64,000 nt of DNA from positions 64,381 through 128,380 of the forward strand of contig JAZDOC010000017.1 in assembly GCA_043798935.1 (NCBI GenBank). Reading direction: 5' to 3'. Below, piece by piece: positions 9,213 through 49,301 of this stretch. The notes under the pieces are model-generated. The model was given only the letters and a program-made list of their open reading frames with translations. It did not search any database and was not told the DNA's origin. This stretch comes from Patescibacteria group bacterium. Its GTDB lineage: Bacteria > Patescibacteriota > Patescibacteriia > UBA9570 > JAHJKD01. Position numbers and translations under genes: made by a program. How positions within the stretch are numbered: position 1 is the stretch's first letter; each line of letters starts with the position of its first letter.

Positions 9213-9285
9213 GTTATAAATTATAATAATACATAGTTATTAACACATTTTTTGGCTAATGTAAGATAAATTTTATAACATATTA

Positions 9286-9314: not shown

Positions 9315-9321
9315 TAATATA

Positions 9322-9682: not shown

Positions 9683-9731
9683 ATAAAAATTTTGCTATAA
9701 TAACTGTATAATAATTAATAATTATAAATTT

Positions 9732-15475: not shown

Positions 15476-16042
15476 TTGCAGGTAACGCTTTTTATGTTTC
15501 AAAAAAAATTGCATCACAATTCGCAACCGCGGATTTATGGTCGAAATAAAATTTATTTTTTAACAACCATTACATATCAGAGGTATTCATATTTTGATAA
15601 TGATGTTTTTTGTAATATTTTATGGAATGACATTTTTTATACAAAAAAATTAAAACAATTTCATATATTTGCCTTTGTAATTATCAATAATCATTTGCAT
15701 ATAATAGTGCAACCGTATGGGAGATATAATATTTCCGAGATTATGCAATCATTAAAAATGAATTCATCTCATAATATTAATAAAATAACAAGACAATATT
15801 TTAATAAGCGTATTAATGATAGGAAAGGCGCGAATACGTATTCGCGCCTTCAATTTTCTATAAAAGCAATGAAATTTAGATGGCAACATTCTTTTTATGA
15901 TCACATCATACGTGATCGGAAGGATTTATTGAATCATGTAAATTATATAAAGGATAATCCCTTAAAACATAACTTAATTAAATCAAATGAAAAATATACA
16001 TGGATTTTTATTAATCTAGACAAATTCGTGAAAATTTTATAA
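15476..16042 (+). mobile_element. REP-associated tyrosine transposase (RAYT, IS200/IS605 TnpA-like, Y1 HUH family).
   Basis: 188 aa. It has the HUH motif NHLHIIV and the C-terminal RAYT signature RWQHSFYDHIIRDRKDLLNHVNYIKDNPLKH, with the catalytic Tyr in the YIxxNP context. The cognate palindrome lies upstream and internally. Confidence 0.7.
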
Positions 16043-26700: not shown

Positions 26701-29700
26701 GTGAGCCGGATGAAGAAACCACAATTACTACTTCTACCATTACCCCAACTTCATATACCGTTTCAGCTTTATCATCTGTAATCGAGCGCACTATTTCAGC
26801 CAGTTCGCCATCTACCGGAACACCTCGAAGCGGTGGTGAATTACCGGGACGGGGTGAAATTGTTGGCCCATCTTCTACCAGCACTGATTACGATATTGTT
26901 TTTGTTATTGATAATAGTGCGGGCTTAGAATTTTATGATAATGACCTTGATGATGGTGATGGTTCTTATAGCGACTTCATGGATGAAGACGATGTTGGTT
27001 GCCTGCCCCAAGGTTATGGTGCTACTTGTGAGAGTTATTCAGACATGGAAACATATATTCAAAATTTAGCCGATACTGTAACTGGTTTTTCGAGTGAATT
27101 AGACTCTAACGGTTTGACATATAAAATGGCCGTGGTTAAAGCTAGTAATCCGAGTGATGACTGGAGACCAGAAGTAGTTCAAGACATGACGAGCAGTGTT
27201 TCTGATGTGGTTAATACCATTACAGATTTAGGAAATAATGTTAGCGGTCATGAGGAACATATTTATGAAGCACTGAATTATTCTCGAGGAACTTATGTTG
27301 AAAGTGGTTATAGATTTAGCATTAGTTATGACACAGGCGCTACCAGAATAGTAATACTTTTAACTGATGCATATCCAAGTAGCGATACTCCTTCTAGTTT
27401 AGGTGATAGTTATACTAATAGTCATGGAACAAGCGGTGTTTCTTGGGATAGTTTTGATGAACGTCCTTTAAAAGAGGATATTGGAACAGGCTATACTTTA
27501 TATGCAATAGTTTCAAGTAATGATAGAACAGTTGATTATGCTTCAACTTATTATAATCCTTCGGGTGAAGCCACAACAATACTATATACTGGCACTGTTT
27601 ATGCTAATGAACCGGCTTATGACGCAATCGCATCATATACGGGCGGAGCGATTTATGAAATAGATACGGCTGATTATAATACAATTTTTTCCAGTATTAC
27701 TGATAGTATAATGGCCGATCGGGACACTGATGGCGATGGCATAGATATCGATGACGATGCTTGTTCAACTGAAGACGCATCTAGTTGTGATATCGATAGT
27801 GATGGATGTCTTGATGATGAAGATGGTGATGGTGTAAGTGATTGCGTTGATGAATGTTTAGGTTCAGACGCCAGCGATTACGATACCGACAGCAATGGCT
27901 GTATCGACGACACCGACGATGATGGCATTTTAGATGATGCGGACACAGATATCGACGCCGACGGCATAGAGGAAAGAGATTTAGATGAAGATTGGAGCTC
28001 CACTACCGATGGCGCTGAAGGAACAGCCGAGTGCTTCCAGCGCGATGAAAATAGATTTAAAGACGGCACTAATAGTTTAATGATGACCGGCGATTGTGCC
28101 ATAGTGAGCGATTATGTACCAATCGAAAGAAACAAACTTTATACACTAGAAGCATATTTCAGTATTGAAGAATATGGTCAATATGAAGGCGAAGATGATG
28201 ATAAATACCAGGATGTAAGCATTGGTGCATATTTTGTTAAATATAATGAAGACAGAAACACTTGGGAATACGTGGAAGCAACTGATGCTCAAACATATTT
28301 TGTGGCTGATAATTTAACTGTCACCCCGACCGACTATGAACAATCTGATGATTTTTCAACCGATACATCTGACCAGGATCTTTATAGCAAATGGTTGAAA
28401 GTGTCTGGTAATATCGGCATAGGATCAGACGTAGAAATCCCTGAAGATGCGGAGTTTGTTAGAATATATCTGGAAGCTAAAAATCATGGTGATGTATTAT
28501 CGCCTTGGTTCGATAAAAATGTTTGGTTTGATAGTGTAAGCTTTAAAGAGAATGATAAATATTTCATGATCGACAGCACTGTTGACGGCACTGATGAAAG
28601 AGAAGCTACTGATGAGGTGCACACTTGTATTGATCAAGACACTGAAGAAGAGGCAGTCACTTCCGATGGTGGGTGCGTAGCATTTAGAGACGCATTAAAA
28701 GATTCACAGTATTATGTACAATTTGTGACCGATGGTACATGCAATAGTTGTTCTATTACCCCAAACAGTGATTCTTGTCGGGGCGTAATTGACGCTTGCG
28801 ATACTAATGCCATATTAAAAGTTCAGAAAGATCGTGTTTGCGATGAATGGGTGGCTTGCGAGACTGCAGAAATTATTGAAGATAGCAGTGGCAGTTCAAA
28901 ATATACCTGTTTCAGTTTACAGCCGTGTAATAAAATTAACGATGAAGGTAAATGTATTTCCTGGGTGCCAAAACCGGTTTATGAGGATTTGGATACCCAA
29001 ACTGATATAACTTATTATACTGCCGCCGGCGATACAGACCAACTATATGCCATGCAAAATTTAACCGGTTATGTTAAGGCCGGTTTAACCTGGAGCGATT
29101 ATAAAATGTGTAATGGTGGTATTAATGCTGGTAATTATTGCACTTCTAATGATGACTGCTTAGATGTTGGAACATGTGAAAGCGAAGTTATTGATTTACC
29201 GGACGAAGATGGAGGTTTGGGTATGGATATTATACAATTTGTCTGTCTCGGTGGTTCGAAAAACGGTGAAGATTGTGCCAGCTCTTCTGCCTTTGGTCTT
29301 AGTGGTGATGATTCGCTTTGCGAAGGCGACTGGGATGGCGCATGTAACTTACCACTAATCGTTGAAGGTTATTATCCTTACGGTTGGATGTATGAAGCCG
29401 GAGAAGCCGGGTCTGAATACGGCGTTGAACTTATAGAATATAATAATTTTGAAAATTTATATTGTGCTGGCAATAAAATTAAAAATAGGATTCCTTGTAT
29501 AAGTAACAGCTATGAATCTGAAATCGGTAGTCATTGTTGGTCGGCTAATTTAGAAGTATATCAGAGCGACGAAGATCCTAATAATGATCCAGTTGAAGGA
29601 ACTTCAGGTGAAGATAATAAGTCAGCAGATTATTATTGTGCTAATTCAACTGAATGGAGTGAATTCCCTTTCAGCCAGCCGGCTGAATATACCGAAACCG

Positions 29701-32700
29701 GATGGTCTGGTTATATTGGTAATGAAAAAGTACAAGTGAAACAATATGATAATCAATATGGTGATAATGAGAGTATAGACATTAATAATGTGCTTAAAGC
29801 ATCGGGCGCCATGACTTCTGCTGGCGAAAACATCGGGTTAAAATATGATTTAAGCACAAATATTCAAAATAATGGATATTATGCCTTGTCTTTTAAAGGT
29901 CTTTATACTAGCAATTATTATAACGCCAATTCTGACAAACCAAGTTCAATTAGCGTGGGTTTGCGACATAATAACATAGTCACCGACGGCACTGATACTG
30001 AAACGCAAAATATTGATTGGTTTATTCAGGGTGCGGGCATGGCCGATGTGGTGTTTGTAATCGACAGTTCAAGTTCAATGAGCGGTTATATGGCTGGTGT
30101 AAAAACTGCGGCTACTGATTTAGCATCTCAGCTTCAAGCAGTCGGCATTGGCGCTAAATTTGCCATTGTTGATATGGACTATTTATCTTCATCATTATCT
30201 GGTCCTTATGAAAGGGGACAGGAATACAACAATGTTAATACATTAGATCTTGATTTAACAGATAATTTAAGCACATTTGGTAATTATATAGATACTTACA
30301 TTCAAGCAGCGCAAGCCCAAGTTGATCCTTTTGCTGCTGTTCAACAAGTAATAAACAACGATTTAACTTTAGTAGATCCTCTTGGCCCGCTTGATAGTTC
30401 AGAAATATCATACCGCGACGCATCGGAAAAAATAATTATTGTAGTTACTGATACTTATGATGAATATGTGGAGTATGATAGTCGCGATACCTCAAGTTAT
30501 GCTGGTGCTTATGATTTAGAAAACAATATTCCTTATGATGGTTATTATGCCGACTTCTTAAATAGTTCCGGATTTACCGTTTATACTATCACTACGCCAA
30601 CCATGTATAATTATGGCGATTATAATGATCTAGCTTCTTATTCTGGCGGTGCAGTTTATGATACGCTTTCTACTACAACGGCCAACTGGACTGCTACAAT
30701 TCTAGACATTTCTGATCGCATTATTGCCAATGCTGATGTATTCCAATTTTCGCAGAGCTTAGATAGCTTCGCTTTCGGACCAATTAAAGTAGTTGAAAAA
30801 AATCCTTGCACTGATAGCGATTGCGACCCGGTTGAAAATGTAGCTTCAGGTGAACTCGTCACATCAGACTTAATCTTTGTTAGCAATGACGGTATGTCGT
30901 TTGAAATTGACGACGTTTTTTTACTACCGGTGCTTGAAGTAAATAAAAATTTAAACCCGATTAGCCGATCTTGCCGAGCCTACGCTAAAGATGGAGATAA
31001 AGAGTGTGTTTATACTGAACCAAATGGCGTACAGCACAAAGGTTGGAGAGGATATTGTCTTGAAGCTGACCCGGAAAATAGTAGCCGTTGTATTACTTGG
31101 TGGCCGCTTGATGTAATTGCGGGCGAATCTACCATGTACACGCGTGAACGTGGCGGGTATAGTGGTCGATCCAATGTTTATATGTGTTTAGCCGCTAAAG
31201 GTTATGAACGCCCTGGTTTTTGTAGTGGCACTGATGTTGAGGGAAATGATTATGATAATTTAGCTCCTGGCGATGGTGTATTATGCCAACCAGGAAGTTG
31301 GGATGATACAATGGGTCGAAGTAACACATGTGGTGCTGGTGGTTTAAGCAGATGTTTTTATGGCGCTGAAGATGTAATTTCTGAAGAGTATAGCCGTGAT
31401 GGAGGTTTTGTATGTGATGTTTTATTAGCCGCAATGATTTTTGAGTGCGGAGAGAGTTATTTAATAACTGGCGGTTTAACAATTTCGGCTAATCCTTTAT
31501 GTACAGCGGCAATTACAGCTTATTCTCTAGAGTGTTTAGCCGGCTCTGGAGGAGATAATATAGACAATACTTATACAGAAAAATTTATTCATGATCCCGG
31601 TATCTGCCAAGTACAAGATGATGATGATTTACAAACAGATTGTGGAGCATACCCTTCAGAAAATACCTGGGTATGTTCTACCGATACTATTACCAATCAA
31701 GATGAGTGTGAAGAAAGCGGTGCAACATGGAGCTTGGCAAATATTAATGTCTTCGACAGTAATATAACTTATACTGGCAAATGTATTTATTATAATAATT
31801 ATGAGGACTATGGAGATGATCAAGATTTATCTGCCACACATACTTATTGTTTTTATGATGGAAATGAAGACGGTATTACTGAAATTAGAAGCACCTTTGA
31901 TTGTAATAGCGACAGTGTATGTCAAATTAGCCCTACTGTTACTGGCAAGCAGTGCGCACCCATGCAATGTGTGGGCACGAATTCTACACCATGCAGTCCG
32001 GCTTCCTGTGATGACCGATATGGTGCGTTGGTATTAAAGGGTTTACAAGCAGTTGCTAATACTCTTGATCCGTCAGGTTATACTGCTCAAGTACTTCCCG
32101 GTCTATTAACACATAATTGTGAACCAGAAGAAGCTTGCGGACAGCCGACCACTTTGCATAATAATACTAACAATTACGGTTTAGTGACTCGCAGTTGGCA
32201 GATGTATGATCCGTATCATATAAATTTAAGTGAGAAAAACTATGGTGTTATTTCCAAATTAGAAGCTAATGTGGCCGAAAAAAATATTAATATTAGTGAA
32301 ATCGAAAGTATCGATATTTTCTTGGGTGATGCCGGTAAAGGTAGCGGTGGTGATGAAGAAGCATTATTCTGGGGGCAAGGCGGTAGCGATAGTGATGGAC
32401 CTTTTAAGGATGACAATGGCACTATTACAATTACTGATTTAGCGGCGGGTTCAATTCCCGAAGAAGGCGCTGATGGTAGTAGCGACGGCCCGTGGTCGCA
32501 TTGTATGGGTGTTGACCAAGGTTCAATTGAAGGTGCAGGTTGTTGGTGGTGGGGTCAGTACGATAGCCGTGGAAAAGCCGATAAAGTTGGCGTTTATACC
32601 TCTGATGGAAATCCGATTAACGACGACAGTACTTATGATTTAGTATATGTCTGGGGTTGGAGTGATTTCATGAAGCATGATAGTGGCTGTAATGGTACCG

Positions 32701-34400
32701 GTACCGATCCTGATCAGCCGGACGAGTATTTTCAAACTATGAATAGCGATGGAAATAATAAGTATTTCTTAGATAGTAAGTGTATGGACAATGCCATTGC
32801 TTATGTAATGAATGGTGGTAAAGGCGGCACTACTAGCAGTGGTAATAACCCGTGGAATTATGTTGGTGGCGCTTTAGAAGATTTAAGTGAGGATGGCAAT
32901 GATGCTGTTGGTTTCGAGAGACCTGGTGGATGGGAAGGTTTCGGAAATGAAGATGGTAGCAATACTCATCATGGTGGAGCAATTTACAGTATTTGGTTGG
33001 ATTTTGATGGTGATGGATTCTTAAAAGATATTTATACCATGGTTTATGATGGCGCTGATGGCATTGATGATAGTATTTATGGAGTAGAAATTACGCGTGA
33101 TGCCATGATTTCCATGAAATATAATTTACGCGAAACTTGTGCTTTGGTTGCACCAGTAGTTAGCCCCAGCGGTGATAATTATGCCTGGGCCAACCGTGCC
33201 AGTTGTTTAGGTGCTACTAATTACGATAATGTTGGTTTTTATTGCGATGATACTACCGAGCCTTGGGGTTCAATCGCGCCCATGGACGGATCCATTAATG
33301 CATCTTGGGATAGTATTGATGAATATGATGATACCACAACTAATCCATATAAAATGACAGCTTATGGCCAACAACCGTTTTTCTTCTACGATTCTAAGGA
33401 TAAGGGAGTTGTCACAGCCGGCAAGCCTTATTCATGTATCGGCCAATGTGAAAATAGTTATTGCCAAGGAGATAAATCTTACAATGGTGAGCCTTGCGAC
33501 AGCGCTAATGATTGCGGTGATGGTTTTTGCGTGGGCGCCGGCACGGATATAAACGATAATATCAGTGGCATTGGTTTATATCCGGAAAGCGCGAGCGGTG
33601 ATGATTATAATACTTATCATTTTACAAGTTATGCTGATCAGCTGGATTATGTGGCTGACAATGCACAGAATAAATTAAATAAGTTATTTGCTGATACAAT
33701 GGGGCCGGCTTATTATGTAGATTATGCACCACTTGATGAAATATACGGTATTTATCATCAAGACGCAGATAATGCTTTTTGGGACAAACAATCATTTATA
33801 GACATGCCTGAATGCGTGGGCGACCGCGATACTTCAACCATTAGCGCATCAGCTCTTGATTATTGCGGTGTGCGCCCAACAATTTCTGATATTTATCTAG
33901 ATGGCCACAGCGCTAATACATTAACCGCGACCGGTGTGTCTTACTACTCAATTTATAAAGGCCAAGCCGTAAAGCTTACTTTTAATTCCTCGGCCGATGT
34001 TGAACAAATACCCGTGCATAAAGTAATGATCGATTGGGGTGACGGTCGGGTGACGAACCAAACCTGGGACGCTTTGCCGGGCGAACATGTTTATACACAC
34101 GCTTATGGTTGCGGTCCAGAATATGCCAACTTTATGTATTCGTATAAACCGGGTGAGGCATGCTATTATAAAGGGGCGATCACAATTACCGATAATTGGA
34201 ACTGGTGTTCGGGTGCCACTAAAACCGGCACTTGCAGTGATAACACTTATAAATTCGAGCGCACTTGCAGGGCCGCTAGCGAAACCTGGACCGAAGACGA
34301 CAGCGATTACAGATTCTTTGAAGAAGATGGATCAGACATTATGGCCAATTGCGGCAGTCTGGATTATTTCCCCATGATTATTAAAGTCACTGAAGAATAA
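20772..34400 (+). CDS. Giant 4542-aa secreted/surface Cys-rich protein. It has two von Willebrand factor A domains, a thrombospondin type-3-like Ca-binding repeat block and a C-terminal PKD-like motif.
   Basis: It is a single uninterrupted 13.6 kb ORF with an N-terminal signal/TM (IIISLLLISTVLLSISGIFYPKTTYA). The vWA MIDAS motifs are DIVFVIDNSAG (nt 26892) and DVVFVIDSSSSMSG (nt 30045). The TSP3-like block DRDTDGDGIDIDDDACS...DSDGCLDDEDGDGVSDCVDEC...DTDSNGCIDDTDDDGILDDADTDIDADG spans nt ~27718-27990. The PKD-like motif is IDWGDGRVTNQTWDALPGEHVYTHAYG (nt ~34029). Cysteines are very abundant. Confidence 0.8.
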   Translation: MPTLLKHKKIIISLLLISTVLLSISGIFYPKTTYAFPAEITTQGPDWQIKNIKEVILKKLQDIGYGMYRNAMNAFLGRAAYDLATAIATGGTGQQPLMFTETPGAYVRDLADAAAGAAIETFATDLGFDAAAICHPTNPEFKIKLGLDLEGLFGGESYYKPVCTFSEFQDNWNDFFQDPEFDKFVSAQWDPKVNPLGQALSAIDYVQAQYDDATKQAELERLVSGSFKDLKDLGGHITSPGSLIEKQWGITQETSFEGLKSLGSPLADAANIFSNTLFTKLSKRVQQGLVSITSLNLSSLIAGSSGGTTSGIKAAQATYTSFNQPNFVTTGSYDVLADLAICPEASASTSENCVIGSTMQTAIENKWTVNEFVDYLSEVQGNSEFRFSQDNIGSPEEGITYRGILVLKKYRIVPVGWQLAAEFIRSEKTTQEPTLKQLMDCYDACGAEGSQGECQYILENTTYSPFCKLVDPSWVLKAPEYYCEREAPGSSIVYDEFYDTDGMSQTQETRTIGRAQECVDERGCIQEQVENICTAYGYCSAEKRIYRSDGDVCDAAYASCQSFEVKEEGDVLEGQTVSYLKYDLNYGDCATDPGCKWYCLAQDAGGSYICKDQDTVYNVCDNSDSTYYTAESCTCETQESCWVNAGSGSEDDRYRTCSLGYCAEDSTINLKSDCDAISGTWVGSGATCNLGDNCGETSPYYSHTNEQCYCSVQNSCDIYVDTDGDGYTSGSTSSCIYTYDSGEAINCSLSADCSADNETYSSQGYCKAYDAGDNTCIVQSGAGSCINDLGNTCTFGYCVNDDGGYESDGMLDCADDGFTWLTTACTSDIADVPDASGINKYCTCNLGDADICEVSEGGYSCTTDSGTKQILGTEEEADIVPDAPDLVYNVSINLDHNAAECDSENAGCNLYYRVLSDTNLLYNATFQTIYTAGGDEVDDEFDNQDRFGFYAITGQGCLIDDATAGGCIGWQQHGVSAYAISGNGDTYNHPDIINTYGQSIILPADTTGTGYISNTIDTGYELADRTFIFAYSGASDSSATPKFAVGSADGSYSITIPTSISSDETADYDYYNEDGSIISYSTTYQDYYYTFTFPNSVTDTAITVYIYASTEADVSIDVAQLTEASSWNGSYAGYGENNATYLYGQNVECEAEDIGCKLYTPLDQDDATAIPAQITNPYSTVCGSGSDFSNINCNQCNNIDTELGQEDYYVGCDFYQEMPLTNNFPVASDPTSWTLSDVTERLAVAQRTGYYCADTTISCFPGDPDGYCASPLDCVNNVSLIPDTGLSCSASAVGCEEYTNLDTVSSGGEGLEYYSFIKQCVKDTDDNAYTFHTWEGSDTDGYAMVLYNLKASNIEEDGSVCTDGICPPCTHLDPEVEDPNAECLDSTDPTSLYYVEDCTAVYGTDPDCVKLYDDELNTYYRYASQTVTVSADCLALRNTLDQRVYYSMLDESTTCSAADAGCREYQGSDSGAVEQIVNEVYDENSTDNWTGAISTSNESLFTDDYSLRLDSGTPDDDPSLDATTANTITYNLYTTTTGSDGETVYYSDVDAGATYIATFWAKGDGALNISLNGASLSDTYYFTETGSELGSATSTDRDIAISDSWTYYILGPINLPAGEDTDDAALVLNYTGSTSSSAGYIDNVVIEKNSSQYLVKGSFDSCYDYEGCRRYRDNDRDTNYLKSFKRLCEDSAVNCEAMFNTSNSTNEFTEIFLTTNEYSTDDVVVPYDQIQPVIYNSDETCSSTNKGCTAVALPDINEQTGLISSLDTVYRVLDPDKYSVSLCEDPHLQCKEYYSDYDGTVYFKDPGDRTCDYKTYTNSDGASVYGWFIKDSEATSPNCPKMYEYDDPSQPMGSVCNSNSLTKTGDKCNNDYDCYPDGWYSGMPTPRCISRVEDDIDQDAANGYSLDRNKNFGWVGTCDEQNSGCSEYIDPNSPNIEEAIRNSGFENNVKNNVTGIYYTGGGTEEDLPDYWTPVDNGEPDEETTITTSTITPTSYTVSALSSVIERTISASSPSTGTPRSGGELPGRGEIVGPSSTSTDYDIVFVIDNSAGLEFYDNDLDDGDGSYSDFMDEDDVGCLPQGYGATCESYSDMETYIQNLADTVTGFSSELDSNGLTYKMAVVKASNPSDDWRPEVVQDMTSSVSDVVNTITDLGNNVSGHEEHIYEALNYSRGTYVESGYRFSISYDTGATRIVILLTDAYPSSDTPSSLGDSYTNSHGTSGVSWDSFDERPLKEDIGTGYTLYAIVSSNDRTVDYASTYYNPSGEATTILYTGTVYANEPAYDAIASYTGGAIYEIDTADYNTIFSSITDSIMADRDTDGDGIDIDDDACSTEDASSCDIDSDGCLDDEDGDGVSDCVDECLGSDASDYDTDSNGCIDDTDDDGILDDADTDIDADGIEERDLDEDWSSTTDGAEGTAECFQRDENRFKDGTNSLMMTGDCAIVSDYVPIERNKLYTLEAYFSIEEYGQYEGEDDDKYQDVSIGAYFVKYNEDRNTWEYVEATDAQTYFVADNLTVTPTDYEQSDDFSTDTSDQDLYSKWLKVSGNIGIGSDVEIPEDAEFVRIYLEAKNHGDVLSPWFDKNVWFDSVSFKENDKYFMIDSTVDGTDEREATDEVHTCIDQDTEEEAVTSDGGCVAFRDALKDSQYYVQFVTDGTCNSCSITPNSDSCRGVIDACDTNAILKVQKDRVCDEWVACETAEIIEDSSGSSKYTCFSLQPCNKINDEGKCISWVPKPVYEDLDTQTDITYYTAAGDTDQLYAMQNLTGYVKAGLTWSDYKMCNGGINAGNYCTSNDDCLDVGTCESEVIDLPDEDGGLGMDIIQFVCLGGSKNGEDCASSSAFGLSGDDSLCEGDWDGACNLPLIVEGYYPYGWMYEAGEAGSEYGVELIEYNNFENLYCAGNKIKNRIPCISNSYESEIGSHCWSANLEVYQSDEDPNNDPVEGTSGEDNKSADYYCANSTEWSEFPFSQPAEYTETGWSGYIGNEKVQVKQYDNQYGDNESIDINNVLKASGAMTSAGENIGLKYDLSTNIQNNGYYALSFKGLYTSNYYNANSDKPSSISVGLRHNNIVTDGTDTETQNIDWFIQGAGMADVVFVIDSSSSMSGYMAGVKTAATDLASQLQAVGIGAKFAIVDMDYLSSSLSGPYERGQEYNNVNTLDLDLTDNLSTFGNYIDTYIQAAQAQVDPFAAVQQVINNDLTLVDPLGPLDSSEISYRDASEKIIIVVTDTYDEYVEYDSRDTSSYAGAYDLENNIPYDGYYADFLNSSGFTVYTITTPTMYNYGDYNDLASYSGGAVYDTLSTTTANWTATILDISDRIIANADVFQFSQSLDSFAFGPIKVVEKNPCTDSDCDPVENVASGELVTSDLIFVSNDGMSFEIDDVFLLPVLEVNKNLNPISRSCRAYAKDGDKECVYTEPNGVQHKGWRGYCLEADPENSSRCITWWPLDVIAGESTMYTRERGGYSGRSNVYMCLAAKGYERPGFCSGTDVEGNDYDNLAPGDGVLCQPGSWDDTMGRSNTCGAGGLSRCFYGAEDVISEEYSRDGGFVCDVLLAAMIFECGESYLITGGLTISANPLCTAAITAYSLECLAGSGGDNIDNTYTEKFIHDPGICQVQDDDDLQTDCGAYPSENTWVCSTDTITNQDECEESGATWSLANINVFDSNITYTGKCIYYNNYEDYGDDQDLSATHTYCFYDGNEDGITEIRSTFDCNSDSVCQISPTVTGKQCAPMQCVGTNSTPCSPASCDDRYGALVLKGLQAVANTLDPSGYTAQVLPGLLTHNCEPEEACGQPTTLHNNTNNYGLVTRSWQMYDPYHINLSEKNYGVISKLEANVAEKNINISEIESIDIFLGDAGKGSGGDEEALFWGQGGSDSDGPFKDDNGTITITDLAAGSIPEEGADGSSDGPWSHCMGVDQGSIEGAGCWWWGQYDSRGKADKVGVYTSDGNPINDDSTYDLVYVWGWSDFMKHDSGCNGTGTDPDQPDEYFQTMNSDGNNKYFLDSKCMDNAIAYVMNGGKGGTTSSGNNPWNYVGGALEDLSEDGNDAVGFERPGGWEGFGNEDGSNTHHGGAIYSIWLDFDGDGFLKDIYTMVYDGADGIDDSIYGVEITRDAMISMKYNLRETCALVAPVVSPSGDNYAWANRASCLGATNYDNVGFYCDDTTEPWGSIAPMDGSINASWDSIDEYDDTTTNPYKMTAYGQQPFFFYDSKDKGVVTAGKPYSCIGQCENSYCQGDKSYNGEPCDSANDCGDGFCVGAGTDINDNISGIGLYPESASGDDYNTYHFTSYADQLDYVADNAQNKLNKLFADTMGPAYYVDYAPLDEIYGIYHQDADNAFWDKQSFIDMPECVGDRDTSTISASALDYCGVRPTISDIYLDGHSANTLTATGVSYYSIYKGQAVKLTFNSSADVEQIPVHKVMIDWGDGRVTNQTWDALPGEHVYTHAYGCGPEYANFMYSYKPGEACYYKGAITITDNWNWCSGATKTGTCSDNTYKFERTCRAASETWTEDDSDYRFFEEDGSDIMANCGSLDYFPMIIKVTEE

Positions 34401-39055: not shown

Positions 39056-39523
39056 ATGCAAATGAATTTTGTGGTGCCACAATTTATTGAGGTCGAGAGT
39101 AAAGTAATCGGTCCTATTTCGATTCGTCAATTTATTATTTTATTGGTCACGGCCGGTTTTCTGTGGCTCTTTTGGACCATTCTAACATTTTGGTTTGCGG
39201 CTATTGTCGATATATTCTGTTTGGCCGTGGGCGGTACTTTTGCTTTTGTAAAAATCAACAGCCAACCTTTTCATATTTTTGCTTTGTGTTATGTGCAAAC
39301 CATGCGGTCGCCAGCTTTAAAAGTTTGGCAACGCGAACGTAATTTCATACTTAAAAAAATAGAGAAAAAAGCTAAACCCACAGTTGCGCCGGCTTACAAA
39401 GCGGTTCCAACACAATCGCGCCTAACTGAATTATCGCTTCTAGTCGATACAGGCGGTGTTTATAAGCCTGAGGAATTGCAAGATCAAGTTCAACAAAAAT
39501 TAAATTCACAATCTAACAAATAA
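39056..39523 (+). CDS. PrgI/VirB3-like small membrane protein.
   Basis: 155 aa with two TM helices, followed by the FAFVKINSQPFHIFALCYV motif that resembles the Gram-positive T4SS PrgI family. It sits directly upstream of VirB4, as in prgI-prgJ. Confidence 0.5.
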   Translation: MQMNFVVPQFIEVESKVIGPISIRQFIILLVTAGFLWLFWTILTFWFAAIVDIFCLAVGGTFAFVKINSQPFHIFALCYVQTMRSPALKVWQRERNFILKKIEKKAKPTVAPAYKAVPTQSRLTELSLLVDTGGVYKPEELQDQVQQKLNSQSNK

Positions 39524-39527
39524 AAAA

Positions 39528-40223
39528 ATGTCTTCGTCAGCTAAAACAGAAATGCAACATAAAACAAAACAAATTCCTTCAACGCAAAAATATTTACCAA
39601 TTGCGGAGATTAAAGACGACCTCGTGGTTTTAAAAGATGGCACCTTGCGCCAGGTGTTGATGGTGTCTTCCATTAACTTTGCTTTAAAAAACGAAGATGA
39701 ACAGCAGGCTATTATTAATGGCTATGTTCAGTTTTTAAATACTTTAGATTATCCCATTGAAATTGTTATTCAATCGCGTAATTTAAACATTGATGCTTAT
39801 ATCAATAAATTAAAAAAACTCGCTAAAGTGCAAACCAACGAACTGCTGAAAATTCAAACCATCGAGTATACCAATTATATTCAACAAATGGTAGAATTAT
39901 CTCAGATCATGGAAAAAAGATTTTTTATTGTTGTACCGTATTCGCCATATTCCAATAAACCAAAAAGTTTCTGGACTCGATTGCAAGAAGTTTTATCTCC
40001 CGGCAGCGTAATTAAATTAAATGAAGAAAAATTTAATAAGTTTAAAGAAGAATTAATTCGTCGTACTTCCATTGTGGCCAGCGGATTAACTTCAATTGGT
40101 TTAAAAGTCGCTCCGCTTGATACCCAGGGTTTAATAGAATTGTATTACCAAGCTTATAATCCGTCGCGGGGCAAGCCAAAAATTCTACCCGATATTAATC
40201 AATTGAAAATAGAAGAAAAATAA
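39528..40223 (+). CDS. VirB4/PrgJ-family T4SS ATPase, N-terminal domain fragment (split gene).
   Basis: 231 aa. The segment DDLVVLKDGTLRQVLMVSSINFALKNEDEQQAIINGYVQFLNTLDYPIEIVIQSRN matches the conserved N-terminus of Gram-positive VirB4 homologs. Its stop TAA (40221-40223) overlaps the next ATG (40223-40225). Confidence 0.65.
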   Translation: MSSSAKTEMQHKTKQIPSTQKYLPIAEIKDDLVVLKDGTLRQVLMVSSINFALKNEDEQQAIINGYVQFLNTLDYPIEIVIQSRNLNIDAYINKLKKLAKVQTNELLKIQTIEYTNYIQQMVELSQIMEKRFFIVVPYSPYSNKPKSFWTRLQEVLSPGSVIKLNEEKFNKFKEELIRRTSIVASGLTSIGLKVAPLDTQGLIELYYQAYNPSRGKPKILPDINQLKIEEK

Positions 40224-42118
40224 TGATTGATTTAAGAGATTCAAAACTACAAGCTCAGAAAAAATTACCGCTGGTCGATGAATCAACCAAAGAACAGCGC
40301 GAACAAGCCCGAGCCCGACAAATAGCCAAAGATCAAGAGGCTAAAGATTTAATTACCGCCAAAAACATTTATGAAAGTGGCGTCACTTACGTATTAGATT
40401 TAATTTCACCGGCCGCTTTAAAAGCCGAACCGCGTTATATAGATTTAGGCGGTAAATATTGCTCTACCATGTTTGTGGTTTCTTACCCGCGTCATATTAA
40501 TGTTGGCTGGTTTGCGCCCATCATTAATTTGAATTTATCGCTCGACATTGCCATGTATTTTTATCCGGTGAAATCAAACATTATTTTAAAACAATTGCGC
40601 AATAAAGTTGGTTCGCTGGAAGCTGAATTAATTTCTGATTCGGAAAAAAGAGCACCGCGTGATCCGGTTAAAGAAACCGCTTTGCGCGATATCGAAGGTT
40701 TGCGCGATAGTTTAACCCAGGGAACCGAAAAGTTTTTTCAATTCGCTTTGTACATTACAATTTATGCGGACGAAAAAAAAGAGCTGGAAGATTTAATGGA
40801 AAAAATGGATTCCATGTTTGGCTCGAAATTAGTGACGGCTAAACGTATTTTTTATCAGGCCGAACAAGGTTTTAATTCCACCCTCCCTTTAGGCATCGAT
40901 GAAATTCAAGTTTATTTCAACATGAATTCTTCACCGTGCGCTTCATCCTTTCCGTTTATTTCTTCGGAATTAACATCAGATAACGGTATTTTATACGGCG
41001 TTAATCGTCATAATAATAGTTTAATATTATTCGATCGTTTCAGTTTACAAAATGCCAACTCTGTGGTTTTCGCTACTTCGGGCGCCGGTAAAAGTTATAC
41101 CATTAAATTGGAAGTTTTGCGTAGTTTGATGATGGGAACCGATGTTATTATTATCGATCCGGAAAATGAATACAAGCATTTAGCCGACGCTGTTGGCGGA
41201 ACTTATATTAATATCTCTTTAAACTCGGATGCTAAAATTAACCCGTTTGATTTACCGCGTCCGGTTGGTGGCGCCGATAAACCGGCCGATATTATTAGAA
41301 CAGCCGTAATTACTTTAAAAGGTTTATTGCGTTTGATGCTGGGAAAAATTAGTGATGCCGAAGATTCTATTATGGACAGAGCTTTGATTGAAACTTACGC
41401 TAAAAAAGATATTACGGCTGATACGGATTTAAGCTTAGGCGTGGAACCGCCAATCATGGCCGACTTTCAGAATATTTTGGAAGGTTTTGAAGGAACGGAA
41501 AATTTAGTTATCAGGTTAAAGAAATTTACCGAGGGTACTTTTTCCGGATTATTCAACAGTCCCACAAACATTGATATGAAAAATCAGCTAGTCACTTTTT
41601 CCGTGCGTGATCTGGAAGACGAATTAAGACCAATCGCTGTTTACAATATTGTCACTTATATTTGGAACGTTGTACGCTCTAAATTAAAACAACGCATGTT
41701 GATTATCGATGAAGCTTGGTGGCTAATGCAGAGCGAAGACAGCGCTAAATTTATTTTTGCCTTGGTAAAACGTTGCCGAAAGTATTATCTGGGTGTCACT
41801 ACAATTACTCAAGACGTAAACGACTTTTTACTTTCTCCTTATGGCAGAGCAATTGTTACCAATTCGGCCATGCAGATTTTATTAAAACAGTCGCCGGCCG
41901 CGATCGACAACATCGCCAAAGTATTTATGTTAACCGAAGGCGAGAAATATTTATTGCTAGAGGGTAATGTGGGCGAAGGCATATTCTTTGCAGGCGAACG
42001 GCACGTAGCCATTAAAGTTGTGGCCTCGCAAACCGAAGATCAAATTGTCACATCCGACCCGCGGCAATTACTGGAAATTGAAGAGTCTAAAAAGGAATTC
42101 GCGGCTCAAAATTCTTAA
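40223..42118 (+). CDS. VirB4/TrbE/PrgJ-family type IV secretion ATPase, C-terminal ATPase portion.
   Basis: 631 aa. It has Walker A VVFATSGAGKSYTI and the VirB4-typical Walker B MLIIDEAWWLM (DEAW), plus C-terminal conserved blocks. Confidence 0.85.
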   Translation: MIDLRDSKLQAQKKLPLVDESTKEQREQARARQIAKDQEAKDLITAKNIYESGVTYVLDLISPAALKAEPRYIDLGGKYCSTMFVVSYPRHINVGWFAPIINLNLSLDIAMYFYPVKSNIILKQLRNKVGSLEAELISDSEKRAPRDPVKETALRDIEGLRDSLTQGTEKFFQFALYITIYADEKKELEDLMEKMDSMFGSKLVTAKRIFYQAEQGFNSTLPLGIDEIQVYFNMNSSPCASSFPFISSELTSDNGILYGVNRHNNSLILFDRFSLQNANSVVFATSGAGKSYTIKLEVLRSLMMGTDVIIIDPENEYKHLADAVGGTYINISLNSDAKINPFDLPRPVGGADKPADIIRTAVITLKGLLRLMLGKISDAEDSIMDRALIETYAKKDITADTDLSLGVEPPIMADFQNILEGFEGTENLVIRLKKFTEGTFSGLFNSPTNIDMKNQLVTFSVRDLEDELRPIAVYNIVTYIWNVVRSKLKQRMLIIDEAWWLMQSEDSAKFIFALVKRCRKYYLGVTTITQDVNDFLLSPYGRAIVTNSAMQILLKQSPAAIDNIAKVFMLTEGEKYLLLEGNVGEGIFFAGERHVAIKVVASQTEDQIVTSDPRQLLEIEESKKEFAAQNS

Positions 42119-44513: not shown

Positions 44514-45896
44514 ATGAACATGCTTTTAGCGAAAAATAAACATTTATTCATTAGGTTTCTAACAGCGCCTATTTTTTTAATTATACTAAATTTTATTCCG
44601 AAAAGTGCACAAGCTGAAGGCGAAAAGCAATATGTAAAAAATATTGGTTATTTATTAGAAGTTCCTATTCCTACAATATCCAGCGGTGGTGTTTCGCTCG
44701 TAAATAATATTGTTGAATATGTTCAACTGATTTATGAAGTGAGTATCTCTATAATTGCGCCATTAGCAGTAGTGGCTATTATCTATGGCGGTGTTAGAAT
44801 TGCCTCTTCAGCCGGAAATGAACAGTCTATTACATCTGGTAAACAAGTAATTATTTCAGCTATTATTGGTTTATTAATACCATTATTAAGCTATAGCGGT
44901 TTAAAATTAATAAATTCTCAATTAGTTGATTTGCAGAATATACAGGTTGAGAAAATAGTTTACGAACCCGATACAGAACCAATTTATACTTTACCGGATT
45001 GCGGTCGTGATTCACGTTTTGAAGATTGCAAAGATACACTTTGCGGGGAAACTTGTTTTAACGAAGAATTAGGCTTAAGTTGTCGCGGTGAAAAAGCAAA
45101 TTCGGCTAACGCTACGGCAAGTTGTTCAGGAAACATGACAGTTATTGGGTCAGGCCCTGGTCAGTGCGAGTGTTACCCATACGCTACAAGCATAACCGAG
45201 GGAAAAATAAAATATAAGATGCAGAGTGCAGATTGCGTCGATCCGGCAATAATAGCAGTTCAAACTTATGATAAATTATATAAAGACAGAAAAGATCGTG
45301 AATTTATGGTGAATGCAATGACTGCGCTTTCCATTTGTGGTAATAATTTTGAACCTTTCTACAAACAAAGCGATATCATGGCAATTGACGAATATGTTGA
45401 TCTTGTATTTGGCTGGTCACATATGGAATTAATGAATAATATGCTAAATCGAAATATGGCAGCGTCTACTTTGTTTTATATTACTTTAAATAAATCATGG
45501 CATTCTCAAACTAACCATGTATATAGTGATCTTTTTGGATTTTGCGCACAAAGGAACAATTATGTTTTTAAAAGTCATAGCCAGTTAGAAACAACAACAA
45601 ATTGTGAATTTAATCTAAATTGCGGAATTCATCCTAGTTATAACGATGCTAGTGATATTTTTGGTTTATTTTGTATGCCTAACGATTGGTCTCAGCTTTT
45701 ACTTAACGGACACGAATATAAAGCTAAAGACATGTCGTCTTTTAATGCTAGCCAGTTTAAAAAAGCACTTTTTTGGGGTGAATATTTGGTCGGTAAATAT
45801 TATAACGGTACTGCTACAAGTTATGATAATGAGTTTATCATGACTCAAGAAATTGCCAATAAATTGGATAATAATCAATACGAAAGTTTTCACTAA
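44514..45896 (+). CDS. VirB2/TrbC pilin-like N-terminal domain fused to a ~300-aa Cys-rich C-terminal domain.
   Basis: It has a signal peptide and two hydrophobic helices separated by a short loop (IAPLAVVAIIYGGVRIASSAGNEQSITSGKQVIISAIIGLLIPLL). It is paralogous to residues ~60-150 of the 47910-49301 protein. The C-terminal domain has about 14 Cys and no recognised motif. Confidence 0.5.
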   Translation: MNMLLAKNKHLFIRFLTAPIFLIILNFIPKSAQAEGEKQYVKNIGYLLEVPIPTISSGGVSLVNNIVEYVQLIYEVSISIIAPLAVVAIIYGGVRIASSAGNEQSITSGKQVIISAIIGLLIPLLSYSGLKLINSQLVDLQNIQVEKIVYEPDTEPIYTLPDCGRDSRFEDCKDTLCGETCFNEELGLSCRGEKANSANATASCSGNMTVIGSGPGQCECYPYATSITEGKIKYKMQSADCVDPAIIAVQTYDKLYKDRKDREFMVNAMTALSICGNNFEPFYKQSDIMAIDEYVDLVFGWSHMELMNNMLNRNMAASTLFYITLNKSWHSQTNHVYSDLFGFCAQRNNYVFKSHSQLETTTNCEFNLNCGIHPSYNDASDIFGLFCMPNDWSQLLLNGHEYKAKDMSSFNASQFKKALFWGEYLVGKYYNGTATSYDNEFIMTQEIANKLDNNQYESFH

Positions 45897-45900
45897 AATT

Positions 45901-47136
45901 ATGCAACTAACAGATTTACAAAAGAAAATATTATACTCAGCTCTATTAATAATAGTGGCAATTGGCATGGCGATTATTATTTATATAGTGTTTTTTAAAG
46001 CGCCTAAAGAAGAATTAATTAATGTAAATGGCGAGCTTGTGCCTGAAAGCATATTTCCGGAAATAAACGCTAATGTTAATCAGGATATTGATGTTAGTAA
46101 TACTAATGCTTTTAATGGCGTGCCCACAATCGATTCGGTAGCGCGTGGATCCAACACTTTAACCGACACATTAACCGATGAAAGTGCCTCTGATATGACG
46201 CTTTCAGCCAATGGCAAGGACGTCCAATATTACAACAGCGAAGACGGAAAGTTTTACCGCATCAACGAGCTGGGTGAAAAAATTGCCATGAGCGATGAAA
46301 TTTTTAAGGGTGTAAATAATGTCACTTGGTCTAACAGCAGCCAATCCGCTGTATTAGAGTTTGATGATGATTATAATTTATTTTACGATTTTGAAAAAAA
46401 GAAGCAATATACTGTTCCTAAAGAAATGGAACAATTTACCTTCTCACCGACTGATGACCAGATTGGTTTTAAATATATGGCCATCGATAAAGAAGATCGC
46501 TGGTTGGGGGTAATGGATCCGGACGGTTCAAATCCTCGGGGCTTGGAAAAACTTGGCGATAATGCCGATAAAATTGAAGTAAATTGGTCGCCATCCGGAA
46601 AAGCCGTTGGAACTTTTAATGAATATATCGACGGTAATCGTCAGCGTGTAATTCCGATTGGTCTAAATAGCGAGAATTTTAAACAAATGACGGTTGAAGG
46701 CAGAGGTTTTGAATATGCTTGGTCGCCAACCGGAAAACAAATGCTTTATAATGTTTTTGGTTCATATTCAGATTATCAGCCGACTTTATGGATAGTTGAT
46801 GCTGAAGGTGAACAAATCGGCGAGAATCGCACGGCTTTAGAAATGAACACGTGGGTAGACAAATGTACTTTTTCTAGCAAAACTCAGCTTTATTGCGCTG
46901 TACCGCAAACCTTGCCGACCGGTGCCGGCTATGCGCGTGATGTGGCTGACAATATTCCGGATAATATTTATAAAATAGATTTAGCAACCGGTAAAAAAGA
47001 ACTAATGGCTATTCCCATTAATGCTTTTGGTACCGAACAGTATACCATTAATAATATGCAGGTCTCTGATGACGGTGCTACTTTGTTTTTTACTGATGTT
47101 CAACAAAACAATATTCATAAATTAAAATTAAAATAA
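45901..47136 (+). CDS. Membrane-anchored beta-propeller protein (TolB/PD40-like repeats).
   Basis: It has an N-terminal TM (LYSALLIIVAIGMAIIIYIVFF) and repeated WSPSGK/WSPTGK PD40-like motifs. I place the start at MQLTDL (45901); the ORF track begins at 45853. Confidence 0.5.
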   Translation: MQLTDLQKKILYSALLIIVAIGMAIIIYIVFFKAPKEELINVNGELVPESIFPEINANVNQDIDVSNTNAFNGVPTIDSVARGSNTLTDTLTDESASDMTLSANGKDVQYYNSEDGKFYRINELGEKIAMSDEIFKGVNNVTWSNSSQSAVLEFDDDYNLFYDFEKKKQYTVPKEMEQFTFSPTDDQIGFKYMAIDKEDRWLGVMDPDGSNPRGLEKLGDNADKIEVNWSPSGKAVGTFNEYIDGNRQRVIPIGLNSENFKQMTVEGRGFEYAWSPTGKQMLYNVFGSYSDYQPTLWIVDAEGEQIGENRTALEMNTWVDKCTFSSKTQLYCAVPQTLPTGAGYARDVADNIPDNIYKIDLATGKKELMAIPINAFGTEQYTINNMQVSDDGATLFFTDVQQNNIHKLKLK

Positions 47137-47137
47137 C

Positions 47138-47917
47138 ATGAAAAAAAACAATTTCCATTTATCAGATACTACAGTTTTAATTATTGTTGCTGTAATTGGT
47201 TTATTACTGCTTGTATTTTTTTTATTATTTGGATCAGCACTTGTTCAAGGCATCTTTGCTTTACCGGTTGAAAGTAATAATACCAATACTAATGCATCAC
47301 AAATTGCCAGCTCTACTAATAACGGCGGTTTGGAATTAGGCTATGATCCATTGATTACTATGGTGCCGGAAGATCTCCAGACGCTTGGCAAAAACAGCAA
47401 AGTGTTCATCTCCGATGTTGATCCTTATCTGGGTTCGTCGCAGGCTAAAGCCGTGGTGGTTGTATGGTCGCGCTTCGATAACGAGCAAGCCAAGGAAAGT
47501 GCTGATATTCTTAAGCAAATTTCTAATGAATATGGCGATAAAATTGTAATTATATGGAAAGATTTTATTAATCCTGATAATAATAACGAAATTGGCTATT
47601 CGGCTGCGCTGGCCGCTCATTGTGCTAATGAGCAAGATTTGTTTTGGCCGTATCATGATTTATTATTCGATAATTATGATCATTTAGACGCAAATACTAT
47701 AAGCGAATTAGCGACCACGGTTAATCTAGATATGAATATTTTTAATGAATGTATCGACAATCAATCTACTAAAGCGATTGTTGAAAGCAACTATTATCGC
47801 GGCCTTAGCGCCGGCATTACTAATGCGCCGGCAGTGTTTGTAAATGATGCCATGATAGACGATGCTCTTAATATTGATACTCTTAAAAATGCAATTAATG
47901 ATAAAATAAATGAATAA
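47138..47917 (+). CDS. DsbA-like thioredoxin-fold protein lacking the CxxC active site (predicted catalytically inactive).
   Basis: It has an N-terminal TM and retains the DsbA-family motif AAHCANEQDLFWPYHDLLF. Where the family places the CPxC active site it has VVVWSRFDNEQ, and the protein contains no CxxC. Confidence 0.55.
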   Translation: MKKNNFHLSDTTVLIIVAVIGLLLLVFFLLFGSALVQGIFALPVESNNTNTNASQIASSTNNGGLELGYDPLITMVPEDLQTLGKNSKVFISDVDPYLGSSQAKAVVVVWSRFDNEQAKESADILKQISNEYGDKIVIIWKDFINPDNNNEIGYSAALAAHCANEQDLFWPYHDLLFDNYDHLDANTISELATTVNLDMNIFNECIDNQSTKAIVESNYYRGLSAGITNAPAVFVNDAMIDDALNIDTLKNAINDKINE

Positions 47918-49301
47918 TAAAAAAATAATATCATATTTTTTTGCGCTATATTTTGTAATCAGCGCCTTTATCCCCCTTATTTCTTTAGCCGGGTCCGCAA
48001 CAGCAACAACCCCAACAGCTGCAAAGAGCACGGTACCAGCCGCTTGCACGGATTTTGCGGATAAGGAAGTGGAATGGACTCAGCAAGAAGATATCATGTA
48101 TTTTTTAGAAGTCCCATTATTTGGCAAGCTTTATGTCACTAATTGGAACGATTATCTGGAAACCGTTTATAATTTTTCCATTACTTTAATTCCTATTTTT
48201 TCTTTAGCCGCTATGTTTTACGGCGGTTTTCGCTGGGCCGCATCGGCCGGCAATGAGCAAGCTATTACTAGTGCTAAAAATGTAATTACTTCAGCTATTA
48301 TTGGATTATTAATTGCTTTACTAGGCTATGGTATGGCTGGGCGCATAAATTCGGCATTAGTAGATAATCACGATGTTAGAATATATAAAATTCCAATTGC
48401 CAATCCTTATGATAGTAGCTGTGAACTTCCGCCGGAAAGTAGAGTTGATCTGGCTATTAGTGCAGTAGCGCCTCATCAATTTGCTTCTTCAACTATTAGC
48501 TCTGGTGGATGTCCAAATCTTAAAGTAGCTATCGAAAAAGCTTTGGTTAATTTAAGTGCACTGGCAGTTACAAAAGGCGCGCCTATTGTATTGAGTGGAT
48601 CGGGTTGGCGTTCAGCTGAAAGGCAATGGTATTTCTTTGCCTGTTATTGCAATGCTCAAATTACCGGTGAATGTAAAAGCGGTGCATGCAATGGATGTCA
48701 ATATTGTGAATCTAATAATTGTAATTTAGCGTCTAAGCCGTGTGATGGCGATTCATCTCGGCATCCGCGCGGTTTAGCCGTAGATGTTAAAATTGTTGGA
48801 ACAATTTTAGAAGGGCATGGCACAACCGGTTATAATTGTCTTAGAGGAAGCCATCCAACCGATAAAAGTTTTGGTTTTTCGCTAAGTGGAAAAGATAAAG
48901 CAATTTGGGATGCATTAAAACCAGAAGAACAAAAATCCCTATGTGAGTGGCAAAAAGACTTAAAAGAAGCCATGACTGGCGGTCCGGGAACGCCTTATGA
49001 CACTAACCCTACCGGTTTAAAAGGAATAAAGTCAGAGTGGTGGCATTTTCAATTATCATCGACAACGGCTTGTTTCGAACTCGGTACTTATGGGCTATCT
49101 TGTCCTTGCAAAGATTCAGCTCCTACAAATTGTCCAACCGGCCAACATGCAGTATGTAAGTTGAAAGATAACTCGTATTCTCAAAGCGAAGGTTGGCAAT
49201 GTATGGATTCTTCAATTGGAAGTGAGAAGAAAACAATAACAAAAATGATTAGCGGCAATGGTGTCGCCACTCTTTATAATTTTAGCTGCATAGTAAATTA
49301 G
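47910..49301 (+). CDS. VirB2/TrbC pilin-like N-terminal domain fused to a Cys-rich linker and a LAS-family (M15/VanY-like) zinc peptidase domain.
   Basis: The N-terminal segment YFLEVPLF...AAMFYGGFRWAASAGNEQAITSAKNVITSAIIGLLIALLGYG is paralogous to the 44514 gene. The C-terminal domain has SRHPRGLAVDV (SxHxxGxAxD, nt ~48753) and SEWWHFQ (ExxH, nt ~49030), the zinc-ligand signatures of D-Ala-D-Ala carboxypeptidase / LAS peptidases. Confidence 0.55.
   Translation: MNNKKIISYFFALYFVISAFIPLISLAGSATATTPTAAKSTVPAACTDFADKEVEWTQQEDIMYFLEVPLFGKLYVTNWNDYLETVYNFSITLIPIFSLAAMFYGGFRWAASAGNEQAITSAKNVITSAIIGLLIALLGYGMAGRINSALVDNHDVRIYKIPIANPYDSSCELPPESRVDLAISAVAPHQFASSTISSGGCPNLKVAIEKALVNLSALAVTKGAPIVLSGSGWRSAERQWYFFACYCNAQITGECKSGACNGCQYCESNNCNLASKPCDGDSSRHPRGLAVDVKIVGTILEGHGTTGYNCLRGSHPTDKSFGFSLSGKDKAIWDALKPEEQKSLCEWQKDLKEAMTGGPGTPYDTNPTGLKGIKSEWWHFQLSSTTACFELGTYGLSCPCKDSAPTNCPTGQHAVCKLKDNSYSQSEGWQCMDSSIGSEKKTITKMISGNGVATLYNFSCIVN

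Follow-up and report, generated by a model that had tools for sequence, protein, structure and literature searches.

The window analysed here, that is, the whole stretch of 64,000 nucleotides at positions 64,381 to 128,380 of contig JAZDOC010000017.1 (Patescibacteria group bacterium, uncultured and ultra-small), carries an operon that encodes a type IV secretion system (T4SS). Judging from the sequence, this conserved operon ends in a gene that joins a pilin module to a putative cell-wall peptidase with an intact catalytic set. As the first-pass annotation of this DNA had proposed, the best-supported reading of the encoded fusion is that of a candidate T4SS cell-wall hydrolase. The enzyme family is an ordinary one, and the interest resides in the fusion and its setting: the fusion could supply the wall-cutting enzyme that the T4SSs of Patescibacteria, for the most part, apparently lack. 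It is also a candidate for the means by which Patescibacteria breach a wall, either their own or that of a host.

The product of the gene is a 100% match to the hypothetical protein V1898_03655 from an NCBI metagenome-assembled genome (MAG) of Patescibacteria (Candidate Phyla Radiation). The gene and its parts are the following (aa, amino acids):

47910..49301, forward strand: pilin-like/LAS (M15) peptidase fusion gene, 463 aa, from the list of open reading frames (ORFs)
47910..47990, forward strand: Sec-type signal peptide, approximately aa 1-27 (KK, hydrophobic core, SLAG/SA), with a hydropathy peak at aa 14-25 and a modelled helix at aa 4-20
48087..48365, forward strand: VirB2/T4SS_pilin-like module, approximately aa 60-152, recognised by profiles, a family hidden Markov model (HMM), the structural model and identity to a paralogue
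48420..49064, forward strand: LAS/M15 zinc-peptidase domain, approximately aa 171-385, cysteine-rich, predicted to be extracytoplasmic
48609..48626, forward strand: R234-S-A-E-R-Q239, an R-S-x3-Q helix motif, based on the invariance of R234 and Q239 and on structure alignments
48756..48785, forward strand: SRHPRGLAVD, aa 283-292, corresponding to SxHxxGxAxD, with H285 and D292 as predicted zinc ligands
49035..49046, forward strand: EWWH, aa 376-379, corresponding to ExxH, with E376 as predicted catalytic base and H379 as predicted third zinc ligand
49065..49298, forward strand: cysteine-rich C-terminal tail, aa 386-463, 7 cysteines, no assigned fold, predicted local distance difference test (pLDDT) 35-45

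The two motifs from which a LAS-type peptidase had first been recognised lie where they were placed, within positions 48750-49055. The SxHxxGxAxD pattern occurs a single time in the six-frame translation of the 64-kb window (approximately 128,000 residues), and that occurrence is inside the fusion ORF. The same is true of EWWH, and the distance from H285 to H379 is 94 residues, in agreement with the initial estimate of about 95. Bare ExxH carries no weight alone, since it occurs 92 times in the six frames. Furthermore, a third LAS hallmark, absent from the first-pass annotation, was found in the segment G-W-R234-S-A-E-R-Q239, comparable to the R-S-x3-Q helix of VanY and LdcB.

The strongest evidence for the peptidase comes from its relatives. 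While a word-indexed homologue search returned one relative (P0002), an exhaustive HMMER search returned 4,839 proteins at E <= 1e-3, the majority of which match the N-terminal module only; around two dozen span both halves of the fusion. A family alignment was made of 26 sequences, namely the window protein and 25 relatives which are 23-38% identical to it, nearly all with the pilin plus peptidase architecture. Ten columns are invariant in all 26 sequences (R234, Q239, C266, C271, H285, A290, D292, E376, W378 and H379), and these positions correspond to the LAS catalytic set plus two cysteines and nothing else. Because the catalytic positions are invariant across the 26 members, the motifs are not a product of chance.

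Curated models give a divided answer. Alone, the window protein scores 19.4 bits against Pfam VanY (cut-off 25; aa 204-296), 13.3 bits against Pfam Peptidase_M15 (cut-off 27; aa 368-383) and 20 bits, over the C-terminal motif, against the NCBIfam DdpX dipeptidase model; a single-sequence phmmer search of PDB chains returned chance matches only (6-phosphogluconolactonase, eIF5A). In contrast, 19 of the 26 family members pass Peptidase_M15 (best 7e-11) and 16 of the 26 pass VanY. In Pfam, the initial assignment to M15 is reached above cut-off for the family, and this protein taken singly stays under it. Against solved structures, the family profile matches VanX (1r44) with an E value of 1e-10, and also LdcB, DacB, VanY, VanXY, Ply500 and LysB4. 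The alignment with VanX superimposes H285, D292, E376 and H379 on H116, D123, E181 and H184, where H116, D123 and H184 are the three zinc ligands and E181 the general base. The R234/Q239 motif is aligned to "RSydyQ" of LdcB (4mph) and to "RtteKQ" of 5hnm and, by analogy with R71 of VanX, R234 may be the arginine that binds the transition state or the substrate carboxylate.

A model of the domain alone (pLDDT 79; predicted template modelling score, pTM, 0.81) adopts the LAS fold, with a central antiparallel sheet and helices on one face. The VanX alignment and the predicted strands 290-296 and 376-382 suggest that H285, D292 and H379 converge on one metal site. A Foldseek search with the full-length model against PDB was discarded: its matches (histidine kinases, encapsulated ferritins) were driven by the hairpin and meaningless, and the domain-only alignment and model were built in its place. 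Taken together, motifs, family profile and fold place the domain in the LAS/M15 superfamily, with curated thresholds being reached only at the family level.

The domain also resembles enzymes outside Patescibacteria. Over residues 283-382, its identity to VanX/DdpX-type genes of Helicobacter and Enterobacter amounts to 33-35%. In a pattern search for related loci, built on a six-sequence alignment of the domain, most pattern matches were unrelated, and the seven confirmed loci comprised three with the fusion (L003, L004 and L005) and four VanX/DdpX-type genes of Proteobacteria. Some relatives have already been labelled "M15 family metallopeptidase" or "D-alanyl-D-alanine dipeptidase" by annotation pipelines; the window protein is labelled "hypothetical".

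The fusion protein has 20 cysteines, every one of them downstream of the signal peptide. A cluster at aa 255-278 (nucleotides ~48672-48743) directly precedes the SxH motif. Its family consensus is C-P-x-G-C-x-x-C-N-x-A-A-x-P-C; C266 and C271 do not vary, and two additional cysteines are inserted in the window protein. The near-conserved C255, C266, C271 and C278 could pair as disulphides or make up a structural metal site. A ferredoxin-like interpretation of C260-x2-C263-x2-C266-x4-C271 was rejected because, of the four cysteines, just C266 and C271 are invariant and because the domain is predicted to be extracytoplasmic. In the 78-aa C-terminal tail, C388, C416 and C431 are kept in the closest relatives; the length of the tail is very variable across the family.

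The N-terminal part, which had been described as a pilin-like module, stands as such. After a Sec-type signal peptide with a putative cleavage site, the module contains a short beta-hairpin (aa 64-76) and two hydrophobic helices (79-111 and 116-146) linked by the loop RWAASAGNEQAITSAKN; in the model, its pLDDT is 75-91, with the helices reaching 91. Hydropathy peaks of the protein are found at aa 14-25, 94-98 and 127-138. The match of the window protein to PF18895 (T4SS_pilin) is weak (17.3 bits; cut-off 26.6), as is that to NF045849. Of the 26 family members, 24 match PF18895 (best E 4e-10), and so do 99 of 100 further proteins that share the module, seven of the 100 matching also TrbC (PF04956)/VirB2. 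Within the window, the family HMM of the module finds two copies, namely the one in the fusion (106 bits) and another in a paralogue of the same operon (44514-45896) which is 46% identical over the module, the identity being confined to it. The protein is not a small, hairpin-only pilin of the classical type: it has 463 aa, with a 310-aa extension past the second helix.

VirB2 and TraA have both ends outside and the loop in the cytoplasm. By analogy, both ends of the hairpin of the fusion would lie outside the cytoplasmic membrane; given the Sec signal and this VirB2-like topology, the peptidase would be extracytoplasmic, which agrees with its 20 cysteines. As a separate observation on the same module, concatenated pilins with six to seven tandem T4SS_pilin modules per polypeptide were found in P0007, P0009, P0010, P0108 and others. 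P0007, for instance, has 552 aa and six matched stretches (236 bits), so that the pilins are covalently joined and not arrayed as separate genes.

The first-pass annotation had considered the fusion unusual, a view that has to be corrected. In the literature searched, neither the combination of pilin and M15 peptidase nor its role in the operon has been described; yet the architecture is recurrent in Patescibacteria, with at least 24 fusion representatives at the 50% identity level, and it belongs to a wider series. The 100 other pilin-module proteins include ten with SLT, five with SLT_3 (lysozyme-like), one with M23, one with VanY and one with M15_4 domains. In several of them (e.g., P0015, P0016, P0022, P0027, P0038 and P0043), ES...GLFQ transglycosylase motifs come right after the hairpin; the pilin-SLT/lysozyme-like proteins are, in effect, VirB2-VirB1 fusions. 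Since SLT, lysozyme-like and M23 versions also exist, the fusion of pilin and wall hydrolase is a recurrent architecture of Patescibacteria, the M15 version being one branch of it. This suggests that some of the "pilins" counted in Patescibacteria belong to a class of enzymes that are either anchored in the membrane or displayed.

The genomic setting bears out the proposed T4SS context. On one strand, the following genes are found in order: a 4,542-aa VWA protein, two unknowns of 915 and 623 aa, PrgI/VirB3, a TrsD/TraC-like protein, VirB4, three unknowns, a second pilin fusion (hereafter, pilin fusion A), a 427-aa unknown, a DsbA-like protein and the pilin-M15 fusion. The latter is the last gene of the series, and its ATG overlaps the stop of the upstream DsbA-like gene by 8 nucleotides; RecG comes next, on the opposite strand. 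Scans for promoters and terminators around the fusion gene gave results no better than shuffled sequence. The other features of the operon are the following:

39056-39523, forward strand: PrgI/VirB3-like gene (PF12666)
39528-40223, forward strand: TrsD/TraC-like gene, 231 aa (NF041427 TrsD)
40223-42118, forward strand: VirB4 ATPase, 631 aa (PF19044)
44514..45896, forward strand: paralogous pilin fusion A, 460 aa (PF18895, E 2e-5)
45853-47136, forward strand: 427-aa protein whose N-terminal segment is hydrophobic and in which WSP(S/T)GK-like motifs recur
47138..47917, forward strand: membrane-anchored DsbA/Thioredoxin_4-like gene, translationally coupled to the fusion (PF13462, E 4e-18)

The 231-aa TrsD-matching protein also matches the N-terminal region of VirB4-like ATPases and, since this separate gene lies directly upstream of that of the 631-aa VirB4, the latter is split, as has been reported for Patescibacteria. 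The C-terminal domain of pilin fusion A (310 aa, cysteine-containing and unrelated to that of the pilin-M15 fusion) has no match in Pfam, NCBIfam or the word search; the gene at its position in related loci carries differing C-terminal domains. A reading of pilin fusion A as a matching glycosidase, which together with the peptidase would form a two-domain PrgK-like hydrolase, was considered unsupported, as its C-terminal domain neither matched a family nor could be aligned to the ES...GLFQ motif seen in the pilin-SLT relatives. Domain scans of the operon proteins detected no other hydrolase domain in the T4SS operon.

Gene order is kept in L001, L004 (Kerfeldbacteria), L005 and L011-L015. Identity to the window in these syntenic loci differs among genes: 74-85% for VirB4, 57-71% for TrsD, 26-41% for the DsbA-like protein and 25-38% for the pilin-M15 fusion, which thus ranks with the most rapidly evolving genes of the cluster. 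The 427-aa protein, for which neither a family nor a PDB match was obtained, is 38-57% identical in every syntenic locus and is always flanked by the first pilin fusion on one side and the DsbA-like gene on the other. Wherever a locus extends to the gene upstream, the fusion is directly preceded by the DsbA-like gene; the exceptions are L003 and L010, where a pilin gene takes this place. The positions of the DsbA-like gene in the related loci are the following:

L001, 9247-10008; L002, 263-991; L004, ~9119-9808; L005, ~3136-3810; L011, 1579-2295; L013, 829-1563; L014, 7945-8796

The CxxC motif of the DsbA-like protein is replaced by NEQA in the window and is absent as well from five related loci; the two loci that diverge most have kept it (CEGC, CPAC). 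For this genome, the idea that the upstream DsbA oxidises the 20 cysteines of the fusion was rejected on account of that absence. The DsbA-like protein seems to be a conserved pseudo-oxidoreductase, anchored in the membrane and paired with a protein of 20 cysteines, and a chaperone-like role for it is a guess. As regards L005, it is a 5.7-kb contig (CAYMXY010000079.1) labelled as an uncultured Gammaproteobacteria MAG. It carries a Patescibacteria-type segment (pilin fusion, 427-aa protein, DsbA-like, pilin-M15 and RecG), and the contig is probably mis-binned.

In view of all this, the fusion is probably, though far from certainly, a wall peptidase dedicated to the T4SS: exported by Sec, anchored by the hairpin, docked through the pilin module and employed in opening the producer's own wall. 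The Sec signal and the VirB2/T4SS_pilin-like hairpin would insert the protein in the cytoplasmic membrane so that its two ends face outwards, as a bitopic surface enzyme, and thereby the disulphide-rich LAS zinc peptidase (MEROPS M15, VanX/VanY/LdcB-like) would be located in the cell-wall compartment. H285, D292 and H379 would bind zinc, E376 would act as general base and R234 would stabilise the substrate carboxylate or the transition state. The pilin module would be the part recognised by VirB4-type machines, so that the enzyme would be brought to the T4SS apparatus encoded by the same operon, and the peptidase would then cut peptide stems or cross-links of the peptidoglycan, opening the producer's wall for the apparatus or the pilus. 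Such a peptidase would take the place of the VirB1/PrgK hydrolase and would be to the T4SS what TagX is to type VI secretion. The link with the T4SS is supported by the presence of PrgI, TrsD and VirB4 in the operon, by the conserved order and by the fact that the only two pilin modules of the window are both in this operon. The outside location is supported by the signal peptide and the two hydrophobic helices, the 20 cysteines and the coupled DsbA-like gene.

Several points weigh against this proposal: (i) the single sequence falls under every curated Pfam and NCBIfam threshold; (ii) in a Foldseek search with the domain model, the best match (VanXYc, E 0.044) was not significant; (iii) in both sequence and fold, VanX is matched best, and VanX is a dipeptidase whose pocket is closed, not a wall-cutting enzyme, so that activity on small substrates is possible; (iv) all the syntenic loci come from one related lineage, as the identity of VirB4 indicates, so that conserved order is weak independent evidence of coupling; (v) the fusion diverges far faster than VirB4, a rate no less in keeping with a host-facing protein than with a housekeeping assembly factor; and (vi) the DsbA-like partner is devoid of CxxC in this lineage, which leaves the source of disulphide oxidation unexplained.

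The fifth point leads to the alternative that survives best, according to which the wall to be cut is that of a host or prey. The T4SS would extract the pilin module, as it does VirB2, into a pilus-like structure as a minor or tip subunit, and the peptidase, thus displayed at a distance, would cut the peptidoglycan of the host or prey, opening a route for uptake or for effectors. This is less likely, but it deserves serious consideration. The pilin modules of the operon are found solely as fusions to large outer domains, the contrast in identity between the fusion (25-38%) and the ATPase (74-85%) is that expected of host-interface proteins, and the C-terminal tail is variable. Moreover, epibiotic growth requires the T4SS and pilin array of Patescibacteria, and it has been proposed that a pilus serves as conduit to the host (PMC10633639, PMC12857230); bacteria-killing peptidoglycan hydrolases delivered by a T4SS are known in Xanthomonadales (PMC6536674). 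However, a VirB2-type helical filament would hardly accommodate a 300-aa globular domain on each subunit, the module HMM finds no stand-alone major pilin for the shaft within the 64-kb window, no immunity gene is evident, and the protein differs from known T4SS effectors in its Sec signal and its anchor in the membrane. A broader and more doubtful version of the idea takes the VirB2-like pilin of many Patescibacteria as a modular carrier whose outward C-terminus bears interchangeable wall-degrading enzymes. The T4SS would then extrude an enzyme-armed pilus or stalk by which the wall of the host bacterium is digested where the two cells touch. If true, this would account both for the apparent lack of VirB1 and for the essentiality of the T4SS and pilins in epibiotic growth.

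It is quite improbable that the protein performs housekeeping wall trimming, either as a carboxypeptidase of the LdcB/VanY kind or as a D-Ala-D-Ala dipeptidase of the VanX/DdpX kind, with the pilin-derived hairpin as a mere anchor and with the gene lying beside those of the T4SS by descent and not in cooperation with them. The closest solved relatives (VanX, LdcB and VanY), the above-mentioned resemblance of residues 283-382 to VanX/DdpX-type genes and the pipeline names of some relatives all agree with it, and the locus is chromosomal, beside RadA and RecG. But the anchor shares homology with the T4SS pilin family as well as with a paralogue in the same operon, the fusion gene overlaps the preceding operon gene, and elsewhere in Patescibacteria the same anchor bears SLT, lysozyme-like and M23 domains, which points to wall breaching rather than to precursor trimming. 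Finally, a non-catalytic LAS-fold module (cf. Hedgehog N-terminal domains) that binds peptidoglycan or a host ligand, as an adhesin, is very hard to reconcile with the full catalytic set, including E376 and R234, being invariant in 26 of 26 members at 23-38% identity, which favours retained catalysis.

Some other features of the window complete the picture:

13665-14927, reverse strand: LysM plus Peptidase_M23 protein
15476-16042, forward strand: IS200-like transposase
20772-34400, forward strand: giant ORF of 4,542 aa with a VWA domain at approximately aa 3092-3292, otherwise without recognised domains

The first two are located among housekeeping genes (PNPase, LeuRS, KsgA and Sua5) upstream of the T4SS region, and the 4,542-aa VWA protein may be an adhesin. 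The T4SS locus is chromosomal and is not an obvious mobile element itself.

As for known systems, the enzyme fold and the anchor are each familiar; it is the fusion and its operon setting that are new relative to the literature searched. The nearest relative of the peptidase domain is the VanX D-Ala-D-Ala dipeptidase (PDB 1R44; PF01427; MEROPS M15D). The LD- and DD-carboxypeptidases VanY, LdcB and DacB (PF02557; MEROPS M15B; PDB 4mph, 4jid, 4ox5, 5hnm and 5zhf) are also among the closest, but they have a single N-terminal anchor instead of a pilin hairpin, are not cysteine-rich and are encoded outside secretion-system operons. On the side of the anchor, classical pilins are small, with mature forms of about 70-120 aa. 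The fusion shares with VirB2/TrbC and the Patescibacteria T4SS_pilin (PF18895) the signal peptide, the two-helix hairpin, the AAGNE...AK loop signature and the proximity to virB4, whereas these pilins are small and in the fusion an enzymatic part of 310 aa follows the second helix.

The window operon fits the T4SS of Patescibacteria described in a recent survey, in which VirB2-like pilins, not to be expected of a monoderm system, were found near virB4 (Quinonero-Coronel et al., 2025; PMC12102498). In the one species tested, such a T4SS is essential for growth on the host (PMC10633639, PMC11665869, PMC12857230). In the same survey, VirB1 homologues in Patescibacteria were mostly not associated with VirB4, and other hydrolases were allowed as substitutes; pilin-hydrolase fusions go unmentioned (PMC12102498). 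The present finding joins the two observations of the survey, namely that of the VirB2-like pilins and that of VirB1 lying mostly apart from VirB4.

With VirB1, PrgK, TraG (pIP501) and CwlT, the fusion has in common that a hydrolase is encoded within a T4SS operon, with the same proposed job (PMC12102498). These proteins have SLT/lysozyme and CHAP/NlpC-P60 domains, and none of them is a LAS metallopeptidase or fused to a pilin. In the fusion protein, no Pfam or NCBIfam match to SLT, CHAP or NlpC was obtained at E values up to 10. Lacking SLT or CHAP and having a LAS fold, it is at most an analogue of the VirB1/PrgK class and not a member of it.

The closest functional precedent is TagX of Acinetobacter, which is encoded in a type VI secretion system (T6SS) cluster, has two transmembrane segments and a C-terminal LAS peptidase of the VanY superfamily, and is essential for T6SS secretion (PMC5061870). 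Biochemically, TagX has been shown to be an L,D-endopeptidase, needed for the passage of the apparatus through the peptidoglycan of the producer (PMC5061870). Both proteins have two transmembrane segments followed by a C-terminal, wall-facing (in the fusion, by prediction) LAS peptidase, inside a secretion-system cluster. They differ in that TagX belongs to a T6SS of diderms, its domain is PF13539/Ply500-like instead of VanX-like and its transmembrane segments are not related to pilins. On the reading of the fusion as a T4SS-dedicated wall peptidase, the precedent set by TagX, that of a LAS peptidase dedicated to a secretion machine, would be extended from type VI to type IV secretion.

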